Below are positions 1 to 6,000 of a stretch of DNA of 23,051 nt, one piece after another. The DNA comes from a virus (lineage: Duplodnaviria > Heunggongvirae > Uroviricota > Caudoviricetes), in the IMG/VR virus record IMGVR_UViG_2703718769_000008, positions 1 through 23,051 of that record. One strand, given 5' to 3'. The number at the start of each line of letters is the position of its first letter. Positions within the stretch are counted from its first letter, which is position 1. The position numbers are program-made.

Positions 1-3000
1 CTCCAGGAAACCCGGGGCGGTTCAGTTCAGCTGTAAACAATGCTACAGCATCATCAAACTCAGCCAATTCTATGAGTGCGCTTGCTCAACAGTTCAGAGC
101 AGAAAAACCAACGACAGGTTTGTTCGGTAACGCACAGAACATGTTCGCAAAACTTACCGGAAGCGATACAACATTGCGTGATTTGCGCATTCGCCAAAAT
201 GCCCTTGTTAACAGTCAGGTTCTTAAATTCCTACCTCCCGGCCCAGCAACGGATAAAGACGTTGAGATCGTTCGACAGGGTGCGCCAACTGACATGGATA
301 ACCCTGAGACGGTCGCAAGATGGCTTGATGCAATGGCAAACCTTGAGCGACGAAACGCGCAGTTTAATGAGTTTAAAGCCGAGTGGATGAGCGCGAATGG
401 CAACCCTGGACAATCGCGTAATGGCGGTCAGATATTGGGGTTGGATGTTAAAAAAGGTGAATCATTGGGGAGTGCCGTTAAGCGGTATATGTCAATGAAT
501 ACTGACGCAGCGCCAGCACAAGATTCGACACCTTCAGGAGAACCACGGAATCAGGTTGGATCATATACATCAAAATCAGGCATTCAATTTACGGTGGAAT
601 GATGAAAGTAACTGCAAACGGTAAGACATTTACCTTTCCTGATGGTACGAGCACCGAAGATATTGGCACCGCCATTGATGAGTATTTTGCTGGTCAGGCT
701 GTTCAGCAACAAACAGTTAATCAGGCCAATAATGCACCAACACGGGAAGAACCATCATTAATGCAACAAGCTGGCGATTGGCTCACTGGTGGTCAAAGTG
801 CAGGGCAAATTGCAGAACAGGCTGGTCGTGGTCTGGTAAACATACCATTTGACGTATTGCAGGGTGGCGCAAGTCTGATTAATGCAATCAGTCAGGGGCT
901 TGGTGGGCCAAAAGTATTGGATGATGTCTATCGTCCAGTCGATCGACCGACAGACCCTTATGCGCAAGCTGGAGAAACAATTGGCGGGTATTTAGTTCCA
1001 GGAGTTGGAACGGCAGGAAGCATGGCTATTGGATCACTGGCAGAGGCCGCAAATCAGAAAGGCGATTTCGCACAAAATGCAGCTAAAAATGCCGGAGTTA
1101 ACCTTGCCGCTCAGGGTGTTCTTTCCGCAGCAGCAAAGGGAATAGGGCGTGGAATAACGGCTATAAAAGGTGATATTGCGCCAGAAGTGGCGAAGAAAAT
1201 TGCCACATCAGAATCGATGGGCGTGACACCAATGACATCTGATATTATCCCGCCGAAAAATGCTTTCACTCGTGGCCTTACTCAGGATGCCGAGGGTGCT
1301 TTGCTCGGGACAGGCTCAAAGCGAGCGGAGCAATATGCAACGCGTAGTAAACTGGTAAGCAATTATTTTGACCGTTTTGGTGAGTACAACCCTGATGATG
1401 TGGTGAAATCTCTTACCACCACGTTAAGGGGGCGGAAGGATGCCGCTGGCGCTGTTATCAATGACGTCACCAATAAAATGGGTAATGCCGCAGTTGATAC
1501 CACAAATACCATGAATGCTCTGAATACAGCGATCGCAAGACAGGAACGGCTTGGGACGTCTGCCAATCAAAGCCTGCTTACATCCTTGCGTAACCTACGT
1601 GAAGAATTAGCAAACCCTGCAACTGATTTGGATGTTACGTTTGATCTCTTGCGTCAGCACAGAACAGCATTTAGATCTAATGTTCAGGGAGATGCTATGG
1701 TCTTCCCCAACCAGGCAAAAGCAGCTACCAATATGGTAGAGAATGCAATGTCAAAAGACCTTCGTAACGCAGTTGCTAAAAACCTCGGTGCATCAGACGC
1801 AGCAAAATACCTTAAAGCAAATTCCGATTATGCAAACGTTTATAATAAGGTGCTTAATAAAAACATTGCCAACAAGCTCAACAAGGCAAGCAGTGAAGCC
1901 AGTCCTGAACTTATAAATACCGTTGTATTAAGCAGAAAACCATCTGACGTGAAACGAATCTGGAGCGCACTGGATGATAAGGGGAAAGATGCTATGCGTG
2001 CAGCTTACGTCAGCAAAATAGCGGAAAAGGCCGGTGACTCTCCAGCCAAGTTCATCACTGAAGTTAATAAGCTGAAATCTCAGTCAGGTGGTGAAATTTA
2101 CAACACTATTTTTTCTGGAAAGCACATGAAAGAGCTTGATGCTCTTCATGAAGTTCTACAGCAAACAGCAAGGTCAGACACCGCAAATGTAGTAACTCAG
2201 ACGGGGCAATCGCAAGCCAACAGGATAAGGACGATTGGCGCAACTGCGACTCTTGGTGTATCAATGGGGCTTGAGGCTGGTTTTGGTGCAATGATGCGTT
2301 TGTATGAGTCCAAAGCTGCAAGGAATATGCTTCTTCGTTTGGCAAACACCAAAGCAGGAACGCCAGCTTATGAAAGAGCGTTAAATAATGCTGCAAATGC
2401 GATACGCCCTATACTTTCAAGCCAAATTACAGCAGAACAATAGATAAATAATTAAATAAGCACATAACTACTGACAGATAACCAACGCAACTACCCAGCT
2501 TCGGCTGGGTTTTTTTATGCCCAAAATTCACCGTGGCCACGCTGCGGCGATTCATTGTATCTGGAGCAAATTAAATGACAGACATTACAGCCAATGTGAT
2601 CGTATCGATGCCTTCGCAACTCTTCACTATGGCTCGTTCTTTTAAAGCCGTAGCCAATGGAAAAATTTATATCGGTAAAATTGACACTGACCCGGTAAAT
2701 CCTGAAAACCAGATTCAGGTTTATGTGGAGAACGAAGACGGCTCTCACGTTCCTGTTTCGCAACCAATCATCATTAACGCTGCTGGATATCCGGTATATA
2801 ACGGACAGATTGCTAAGTTCGTAACTGTGCAAGGCCATTCTATGGCTGTTTATGATGCGTATGGTTCGCAGCAGTTCTATTTTCCCAATGTGCTGAAGTA
2901 TGATCCAGATCAGTTTAGCCAGCGAATGGAGAATGTTCCTGACATCCATACCTTAATGAGCGAGCCTGCTGGAAATCACACATTAAATGTAATTGGATAC

Positions 3001-6000
3001 GTACCAGGAACCAACTTTGGCGGCGGGCAGTTTTACTGGGATGCCAGCATGCCTAAATCTCAGCACAACGGTATCACCATATTTAGCCCCACAGTTCCGT
3101 GGGATGGTTCGTATGCTGAGCTCGCTGCTTTCCTTGCGGGAACTGGTGAGAGTGATGGTGGTGGCTCTGGTTGCTGGATCCGTTCGAATTGTGTGCTCGA
3201 TGGCATACATACAGTTTGGGCTGGACATGATATTAACGGAGTGCATGATTCAACGGAATCGGTTAACGCTTGTATATCAAAATTTGGTGGTGTTAGAGCA
3301 ATACGTTTTAGCGCCGGTGAGATAAAGTTTAATTACCAAATCAGCCAGCAATATCATGACTCTGCAGGTGTTATACGTAAAACAGCAATTGTAATTAATG
3401 GTAAAAATAATTTATTTGTTTACGCAGATAATGATGTAAATATAAATACAGATGGAAATGGTGAGGCTGAGCGTGTTTGCTTTGGTTTATTCAACTGCAA
3501 AAACTTTAAATTTAATGGTATAAAGTTAAACCAGTCATGCACAAATTTTTCAACTGGACCTTCAGATACCACGTTTACCCCTCAAGAGAATTGGTTTGGT
3601 TTCGCACTTGAGGGGAGTAGTGGATCTATTAATGATATTGACGTATTGGCTGCAAGAATCTTTGTAATGGCAGATGCTGATGGTGACGGTGCTATACCAA
3701 ATGAGGATATAACTCTTAGCAATGTAAGGACTGATTTGGTAACAAATTATACATTTTTCACTAAAAATCTTAATGGAATTGCTAAGATGATTGACTGCCA
3801 AACGTACAGAACAGGCAGAAAATGGCATACTTTTGGTGAAGATTTTGCGTGCTCAGCAAGAACAAAATATTTAATTGCAGAAAGAAATCACTTTATAAGC
3901 CCTATAAGTATTCAGTCTAGGATTACTCCTTGGGGGGTGACTGGTGGTGCAGTTATATCGAATAACATCAAAACAGGACAAGGAATATTCGTTGAGATAG
4001 GAGGTGAATCTAACGGTGTTGCAGCGCAGAATGTTGTTATTGATAGCAATATAAGCATTGGGGATCAGAACGAGGATGGCACATTTTCATCTCATATTCT
4101 AATTATCTGGAATGGTAGTAATGACTACTCAACATCATTCAATGGAATTAAAATAACAAAAAATACATTTAAAGGCGGTGGTTATGCCATAAATGATTAT
4201 GCTGAAACTCAGATGTCTGCATATTGTTATGGACTTGTTATTGAAAACAACCAGTTTGATAGAACTGATGCCGTAAAAGTAACAATGCCCACATGGAGAA
4301 AATCTATATACCGAGGGAATAAGTCATATTTTGTTCATGGCAATACAGGTTGTGAAATTGGTGGTTATGCTCCAATTATTTCTGACAACGACTTTGATTC
4401 TACATATCTAGTATCAACTTCGGGTGTGCGTATCGATGAACCAGTTATTGAAAATAATGAGTTTAGTAACACTTTAAACTCACCAGTAAATCAACTTATT
4501 GACTGGCCTAGCTTTGCTGGAATGATATATAGAGGAAACAGATACACGTTTTTAATTAAGAAATTTAGAGATAACGCAGATATGGTTTCCTGTGGTTGGC
4601 GTTTTGCCGATGTGTCTGCTGGAATAGACACTGCTCCTACTACAACATACCCTGGGAAAGTGCTGATAAATATAGGCGATATGATTCACAATGCAGGTAC
4701 TCCTGCATCAGGAACAAACTGGGCATGGTATGGTCTTGGTAATGGCACTTATGGAAATCTGAACATAGCGTAAAAAAAAGGCCTCAAAAGAGGCCTTAAT
4801 ATTATGATCCTAAATCAACCCGTCTTTGCATAGAGTTTATGTTGTAAATCCCAAATTCAATTGATTTCAAATCTCCTAAATTAATAGGTTCTTTCCATTG
4901 TGTGCTAACACATGTTTTCTCATTTTTATGTATTGAATAAGGAACGAAAAAATTTTTATTAATAACAGAACCATCTTTGTTGTGAATAAGTAGATAGTAC
5001 CACTCGTTTCTTTTAAGAGTAGGGTATGCTGCATTTGAAATGCAAGCATAGAAATACTTATCGCCGTAATGAGCATTACTTACCATTTTACTCTTAAATG
5101 TATACGGTATCATCTTATTATTCACTTCGTCATATAATGTGTTCTCAAAAGATATTACCGTAGTTGAATTAATATTATATATTGAAAAAATATTGTTTGA
5201 GAATATTGGTTTTGATTTTTTAATTGCATCTCTGTATTTGCTTTGCTCTTGAATATCAGGATATTCAATATTGTCAAGACCCTCATGCATAAGTACGAAT
5301 CGACCGCCGTCATAACCATTGATAAAGTGCTGCGGTGACAATATGTTAATCAATGGATATGATAATGAGTTGATGTATGATAATGGAGATTGACGAAGTT
5401 GACCAAGAATAACAACTTTATGATTGATTGAGAGGTAACTGCTATCAATTATGTTTATAATTCTCTGAGACGTTGCTTTTTGAAACTCAACGTCAGATCT
5501 AACCGCATTGCTTGTTGCGTTAATCATGCCAAATAGATAAAAAATGAAAATAAATTGCACAGCAATAGTTATCTTCTTATTCCCATTCAACATAACTGGT
5601 ATGAAGCATATGAAGAAAAGGCATGCGCCAACACCAATATAAATTCTTGGATAGAAAATTGGCTTCTCACCAAATATCGCTATACCAGGAACTGCAATAG
5701 ATAAAGCAACCAATGCCAGAATAAAACCAATTATAGGATATGGTTTCTTGTTGGTTATAGAGTGCTTTACAATACAAAAAATGGAGTAACATATTATTGG
5801 AGTTACAGCTATTAAGAATCCAGAATTCAACATCAATATTATGTTATGCATAGAAGATGATATGTTTTCCATTAACCGCGATATACCATCTGCACTTAGT
5901 GATATAGGTTTGTTAAATTCTTTGAAATAGTCGTTAATTACAAAAAATCCAAGTATGATTTTTGAGTAAATAACATAAGCTACAGCTAGTTGCATTATTC

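Follow-up and report, generated by a model that had tools for sequence, protein, structure and literature searches.

What does the tailspike of a P22-like phage recognise when only its anchor resembles that of P22, and how was the locus around it put together? We addressed these questions for the gene at positions 2575-4773 of IMG/VR record IMGVR_UViG_2703718769_000008 (Caudoviricetes); the 23,051-nt stretch analysed, positions 1 to 23,051 of that record, is referred to here as the window. The gene is the tailspike gene of a P22-like (Lederbergvirus-type) temperate phage of Escherichia coli. In our reading, its product joins a P22-like anchor to a beta-helical receptor-binding domain of a small family, the locus was built by recombination, and the substrate is the E. 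coli O6 O-antigen; we give this reading as a whole a probability of roughly 0.7. Modular P22-like tailspikes are textbook biology and a mosaic as such is expected. The window spike is an uncharacterised example of this well-known type, made by ordinary module swapping. The gene and its parts are as follows (GC, guanine plus cytosine content; GC3, the same at third codon positions).

2575..4773, plus strand: tailspike gene, 732 amino acids plus stop codon (open reading frame list)
2575..2913, plus strand: head-binding (virion anchor) domain, residues 1-113 (PF09008, BLASTP and PDB matches)
2914..2993, plus strand: linker and first junction zone, residues 114-140 (alignment edges)
2994..3189, plus strand: GC-rich, conserved cap module at the N-terminus of the receptor-binding domain, residues ~141-205 (alignments, GC, DNA identity, structural model)
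3135..3195, plus strand: second junction (DNA identity to the related spikes L010-L012 drops from at least 87% to ~45-55%)
3190..4770, plus strand: AT-rich right-handed parallel beta-helix, residues 206-732, GC 37%, GC3 26.5%; presumed O-antigen-binding or O-antigen-cleaving body

The relationship to P22 is confined to the anchor. Pfam family PF09008 (Head_binding) matches residues 1-113 over its whole profile (positions 1-113 of 113, expectation value E 2e-66). The anchor also matches PDB entries 7sg7, 2xc1 and 8tvr, with Sf6 gp14 aligned over residues 1-116 and P22 gp9 over residues 2-117 in the PDB sequence search. BLASTP identities are 93% to Sf6 gp14 (residues 1-114), 92% to HK620 gp9 (residues 1-120) and 94% to CUS-3 SiaK1 (residues 1-120). 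The sole PDB alignment extending further is that of the spike-like protein WceF (residues 8-167). These 113 residues dock the spike onto the tail hub. Past residue ~120, neither the PDB sequence search nor BLASTP (E up to 1-10) gave a significant alignment to P22 gp9, Sf6 gp14, HK620 gp9 or CUS-3, and a profile search of the PDB likewise found no homology of the P22/Sf6/HK620 type in the receptor-binding part. At the DNA level, 31 phage records match by megablast only from gene nt 1 to 338-352. In spikes with unrelated receptor-binding domains the similarity stops at window ~2912-2926; where the receptor-binding domain is the same and the anchor another, it starts at 2994. The initial annotation had limited the similarity to P22 gp9 to the first ~115 residues and placed the junction at nt 2910-2950, at the canonical modular exchange point of P22-like spikes. 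All of this agrees with our alignments: the N-terminal similarity is upheld, the BLASTP and PDB alignments end at residues 114-120, the megablast edge falls inside the estimated interval, and the exchange point lies at residues ~113-120.

Base composition changes elsewhere. A two-segment maximum-likelihood scan of the gene put the GC3 change point at codon 210 (44.8% before, 25.8% after) and the change point of total GC at gene nt 695 (window 3269). AT-richness was thereby ruled out as a marker of the head-binding junction, since the change lies ~95 codons further downstream. GC is 42.9% over gene nt 1-345, reaches the gene maximum of 50.6% over nt 346-600 (residues 116-200) and falls to 37.0% from nt 601 to the end. 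The AT-rich part begins near codon 210 (window ~3205-3270), where other P22-like spikes of E. coli diverge as well. The earlier description of everything beyond the anchor as AT-richer is therefore right from codon ~210 onwards and wrong for the segment before it, which is the most GC-rich of the gene. Enrichment of the downstream part in glycine, asparagine, threonine and serine, also proposed there, is evident (35.5% of residues 206-732 versus 24.1% of residues 1-116).

The GC-rich segment largely coincides with the cap module, which has the motif GYVPGTxFGGGxFYWD...[15 protein letters not shown]...GCWxR; when 32 and 69 homologues are aligned, the majority of invariant positions fall within the module. 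Its DNA is 98-100% identical to that of other spikes from O6 lysogens. Compared alone with the PDB, the module gave only a weak match, to the spike of Acinetobacter phage Fri1 (6c72, E 0.34). The module is near-invariant, occurs with different anchors and is part of the receptor-binding family, not of the anchor. In every background examined, GC is 50-54% in the cap module, 37-41% in the beta-helix and 31-33% in the neighbouring modification gene; the O6 cluster, at 31%, is close to the last of these.

Structure prediction, proposed in the initial annotation as a check, returned a beta-helix. A first AlphaFold2 model, made from an alignment mixing different anchors, had a predicted local distance difference test score (pLDDT) below 50 for residues 1-207 and was confident only from residue ~210; Foldseek searches with it yielded uninformative TM-scores of 0.2-0.36, and the model was replaced. 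With a deeper alignment, residues 113-732 were modelled at a mean pLDDT of 93.1 (89-97 in the cap module) and a predicted TM-score of 0.91, as a small alpha/beta cap that leads into a long beta-helix. The model assigns the receptor-binding part to the right-handed beta-helix fold of HK620-type spikes. Hence the claim that this part is unrelated to P22 gp9 stands for sequence only, because the fold is held in common. Family-invariant acidic residues of the helix are D219, D262, E299, D331, E338, D367, E422 and E474, of which all but the first are spaced about one to two rungs apart.

The receptor-binding family is small. PF27114 (Phage_tail_beta) is the precomputed Pfam annotation of the identical protein and of nearly all homologues; our own searches of Pfam at E up to 10 and of NCBIfam returned nothing for the receptor-binding part. 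Phrog_24092 matches residues 117-732 (E 9e-130). The beta-helix proper is rare, with 23 cluster representatives among 1.84 billion at E of at most 1e-3. The 83 homologues bear at least three different N-terminal anchors, namely PF09008, PF18668 (Tail_spike_N) and a T7-fibre-like N-terminus. Searched against PDB sequences, a profile of 32 homologues matched only N-terminal anchors and, marginally, GH110 (E 0.007), and this profile search found no solved structure within the family. Likewise, we found no characterised member, and the literature on the E. coli W protein accessions and on O6-specific tailspikes yielded nothing specific. Near-identity over the full length is limited to prophage proteins that are uncharacterised, so no characterised tailspike shows high identity throughout.

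That the receptor differs from those of P22, Sf6 and HK620 had been anticipated, and the most likely substrate, on the evidence, is the E. coli O6 O-antigen. We infer this specificity because the serogroup of the lysogens, the distribution of the neighbouring glucosyltransferase gene gtrC and homology to a protein of phage phiEB49 point the same way. With the wzy gene of strain E423 as query, O6 wzy is present in 154 of 5426 genomes (2.8%), and in 22 of them with at least 99% identity. Every one of the 12 genomes matching window 2920-4773 lies among these 22. They are complete E. coli genomes: strain E423 and copies of E. coli W, with this type of spike, and six further strains with sister types. 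E. coli W has the O6 O-antigen and an R1 core and lacks a K antigen (PMC3032704). Apart from W, the one independent complete genome with this spike is that of E423, where it lies in a defective prophage at thrW; wzx and wzy of this strain are annotated as O6 family. The window gtrC is carried by six complete E. coli genomes, every one of them O6. Three receptor-binding types, mutually ~30% identical, are all found in O6 hosts.

The third line of evidence is independent of lysogens. By BLASTP, gp24 of phiEB49 is 38.1% identical to the window spike over 622 columns covering residues 121-732 (E 4e-112). This phage does not infect waaL, wzy or waaG mutants of strain CFT073, and a K2 capsule mutant is infected normally (PMC12488582). 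Pas et al. grouped receptor-binding domains with at least 30% identity as serogroup-specific subtypes (PMC10408124); the similarity to gp24, from an O6-dependent phage, exceeds this value, so the two proteins would form one such subtype. O6 is not included among the 14 serogroups which those authors assigned (PMC10408124). We consider this predicted O6 assignment well supported.

Several points weigh against it. The lysogen count is drawn from genomes other than that of the window's own host. E. coli W accounts for five of the 12 genomes, including two under the label DH5alpha, so that the 12 amount to fewer independent events, and given the rare wzy allele that they have in common, the O6 lysogens may be partly clonal. 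Gp24 is only the presumed O6-binding protein of phiEB49, and at 38% identity to it the specificity of the window spike could differ. Phrog_8280, described as a 'tail spike protein with colonic acid degradation activity', matches residues 1-561 (E 2e-104), with most of the score coming from the anchor. We found no published experiment on the window tailspike or a close relative, and catalysis is predicted just from the fold and the conserved acidic residues.

The alternative that survives best concerns what the spike does once it has met O6. By analogy with P22, Sf6 and HK620, it would be trimeric and bind O-antigen chains lengthwise on the helix, probably cleaving them as an endoglycosidase and so lowering the virion to the outer membrane. 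That the spike, having recognised O6, does no more than bind it, or alters it through a reaction other than glycosidic cleavage, is unlikely. Such a spike would nevertheless agree with the tailspike matching no glycoside hydrolase or lyase sequence family, and the adhesin PfbA and the epimerase AlgE4, which are also beta-helices, score nearly as high as GH110. Still less probable is that the receptor-binding part targets another surface glycan (colanic acid, a capsule or the enterobacterial common antigen) and that its association with O6 is incidental. The phrog_8280 match and the alignment of WceF, an exopolysaccharide-modifying protein, would favour such a target. However, E. coli W lacks a K antigen, and phiEB49 depends on the O6 antigen and not on the K2 capsule. 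Colanic acid is near-universal in E. coli and cannot account for 12 of 12 O6 genomes against the 2.8% background, and the neighbouring gtrC is likewise confined to O6 genomes. That the association merely reflects vertical inheritance of the prophage in one O6 clone, and is thus uninformative on specificity, is very improbable: the minor wzy allele of all lysogens and the repeated W genomes speak for it, but the W and E423 prophages, at argW and thrW and followed by an acyltransferase gene and gtrCBA, respectively, are separate acquisitions judging by these different sites and downstream modules, three receptor-binding types with only ~30% mutual identity all occur in O6 hosts, and O6 dependence is also seen in an unrelated lytic siphovirus whose domain is homologous.

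How did such a receptor-binding part reach a P22-like phage? The initial annotation implied a single junction and a mosaic limited to the spike. The junction next to the anchor (residues ~113-140) was placed correctly, but there are others, and the block common to other phages runs past the end of the gene into gtrC and gtrB. The features downstream of the spike are:

4778..4797, strand unassigned: GC-rich hairpin in the gap between the tailspike gene and the convergently oriented gtrC; its T-run is on the minus strand
4802..6577, minus strand: gtrC-type serotype-specific glucosyltransferase, 591 amino acids, GC 31% (PF14264, E 6e-24)
6558..7487, minus strand: gtrB, bactoprenol glucosyltransferase, GT2 (PF00535, E 1e-30)
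7484..7846, minus strand: gtrA, flippase-like (PF04138, E 1.6e-13)
2994..7542, strand unassigned: block colinear with a siphovirus-type prophage of Citrobacter freundii, contig L020 (blastn)

The products of gtrABC would glucosylate the O6 antigen of the lysogen after infection. The Citrobacter block is a single 4550-bp alignment at 86.4% DNA identity (window 2994-7542 versus L020 8462-13010), and it contains the receptor-binding domain from residue 140, the terminator hairpin, gtrC, gtrB and the 3' end of gtrA. An analogous colinear block of 3095 bp, in which the receptor-binding part is followed by a 375-residue acyltransferase, is found in E. coli W and in the lambdoid prophage L023, with its left edge at gene nt ~420 (residue ~140). 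Between the window and the E. coli W prophage, the similarity (98.2% DNA identity) covers the gene only and ends at 4772. A further boundary appears in the comparison with the P22-like spikes L010-L012 from O6 strains, in which DNA identity is 78-98% over the anchor, 98-100% over gene nt ~360-540 and ~45-55% after nt ~585; their proteins are ~30% identical to the window spike beyond residue 205. Based on these alignment edges, the locus was assembled by recombination at no fewer than three recurrent junctions, at residues ~113-140, at residues ~190-205 and at the stop codon/terminator, and the receptor-binding part can move jointly with O-antigen-modifying genes.

Spikes L010 (2156-4357), L011 (2156-4339) and L012 (2156-4339) represent two further P22-like spike types in O6 E. 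coli. They have the first ~200 residues in common with the window spike at high DNA identity; the two types are 49% identical to each other in the beta-helix, and each is followed by an acyltransferase gene. The L011 and L012 strains (AST198 and VE-F10) have, in addition, a gtrC in the same part of the chromosome, at 96% identity to the window gene. In AST198 (NZ_AP043606.1, ~2,246,000-2,289,300), only ~36-40 kb separate the tailspike gene and gtrC of the prophage from the O6 wzy, and the prophage apparently adjoins the O-antigen cluster. On L023 (6001-9185), the homologous spike (78% identity) has no recognised anchor domain and, together with its acyltransferase gene, is placed between the early genes and the lysis cassette, an unusual site for the gene of a receptor-binding protein.

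O6 hosts harbour three or four receptor-binding lineages, ~30-39% identical, and the modification module alongside differs from one lineage to the next. We tentatively suggest, with the odds against it, that what is exchanged is a 'key plus lock-changer' cassette and more than the tip of the spike. In it, an O6-recognising domain would be linked to gtrCB or an acyltransferase gene and cross between podoviruses, siphoviruses and lambdoid phages and between Escherichia, Citrobacter and Salmonella, with the cap module as a portable left recombination site; spike diversification would then stem from an arms race over O6 glucosylation and acetylation.

The immediate surroundings of the gene are those of a P22-like late operon.

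599-2443: gp16-like ejection protein gene, upstream of the tailspike gene (PF26808 on identical contigs)
2493..2517, plus strand: terminator-like hairpin and T-run between the gp16-like gene and the tailspike gene (consensus scan and sequence; putative function)
2563..2566, plus strand: GGAG ribosome-binding site, 8 nt 5' of the ATG at 2575 (read from the sequence)

In Lederbergviruses the tailspike gene is expected to close the late operon, downstream of the ejection genes (gp7/gp20/gp16), and this is where the window gene lies. The identical protein is encoded on at least 24 contigs, each time after a P22 gp16-like gene, and contigs L003 and L006 have the P22-type order of virion genes upstream (gp10, needle, gp7, gp20, gp16). 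The 131-nt gap between the gp16-like and tailspike genes (window 2444-2574) contains none of the P22 immI-type genes mnt, arc and ant; unlike the window, E. coli W has an Arc gene in this gap. Minus-strand open reading frames that overlap the tailspike gene (2515-2949, 2983-3246 and 3562-3828) are unsupported and were rejected as spurious.

Several observations concern the prophage itself. The 3' 46 nt of a tRNA-Thr gene (thrW) lie at window 8137-8182 between gtrA and the integrase gene and resemble an attP core. A prophage of E. coli OkiPb01678 matches window 8137-23051 at 100% identity, but not 1-8136. Window 25-12000 is 100% identical to the chromosomal contig L002, on which the P22-like late genes are broken by insertion sequence elements. 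The thrW fragment and this pattern of identity suggest either tandem prophages with an internal attP or a circular phage gene order. In E423 (L017, 7584-8667), the tailspike gene is split near its 5' end by ISApl1 and the thrW prophage lacks most of its genes. Near the right end of the window (22372-22524) are adjacent genes for tRNA-Arg(TCT) and tRNA-Gly(TCC).

Among uropathogenic and enterotoxigenic E. coli, O6 is a major serogroup; strain W, Nissle-type strains and ATCC 25922 belong to it as well. We found no published assignment of a spike to O6, and the candidate described here may be of use in typing reagents, engineered tailocins and host-range design. The junctions are mapped precisely, and the conserved GC-rich module could serve as a splice point for spike engineering. 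The most interesting lead is that a receptor-binding part and O-antigen-modifying genes can move together between very different phages.

Compared with the named relatives, the window spike differs from P22 gp9, Sf6 gp14 and HK620 gp9 by its receptor-binding family (PF27114) and by the additional conserved cap module. Its predicted receptor is O6, as opposed to Salmonella O:4, S. flexneri Y and O18A1 for P22, Sf6 and HK620, respectively. The endosialidase tailspike of CUS-3 has its junction in the same place and a head-binding domain 94% identical to that of the window, whereas C-terminally it is a K1 endosialidase, from a different fold class, and no similarity to the window spike was found there. 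The closest protein, WP_001280400 of the E. coli W argW prophage ('Argw*W'), matches at 98.9% identity from end to end, its sole annotation being 'phage head-binding domain-containing protein'; there the spike gene is followed by the gene for the 375-residue acyltransferase in place of gtrCBA, and the prophage is at argW, not thrW. The tailspike P0003 of the Citrobacter freundii prophage is 90% identical over residues 117-732, but comes from another host genus and has a PF18668 (Tail_spike_N) anchor of the CBA120 TSP1/gp66 type within a siphovirus-type cluster of tail genes.

More distant are the 997-residue gp24 of phiEB49, whose record places it in Drexlerviridae, genus Lindendrivevirus, and the 'tail fiber' proteins of siphoviruses ACG-M12, CEB_EC3a, UALMA_PCEc3 and Citrobacter K1M, with 35-41% identity over residues ~121-732. 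UALMA_PCEc3 was isolated on ATCC 25922, a strain carrying O6 wzy. The phages of this group are lytic siphoviruses and their proteins have different N-terminal anchors; at such identity, they may cleave a different bond, or tolerate a different O6 variant, than the window spike does. Finally, the subtypes of Pas et al. have the same architecture, a genus-specific anchor with an exchangeable receptor-binding domain, and those authors likewise reasoned that the spike of a Lederbergvirus prophage predicts the serogroup of its host (PMC10408124). They reported no conserved recombination motifs in Lederbergviruses (PMC10408124), whereas in the locus described here a conserved module marks two recurrent junctions.

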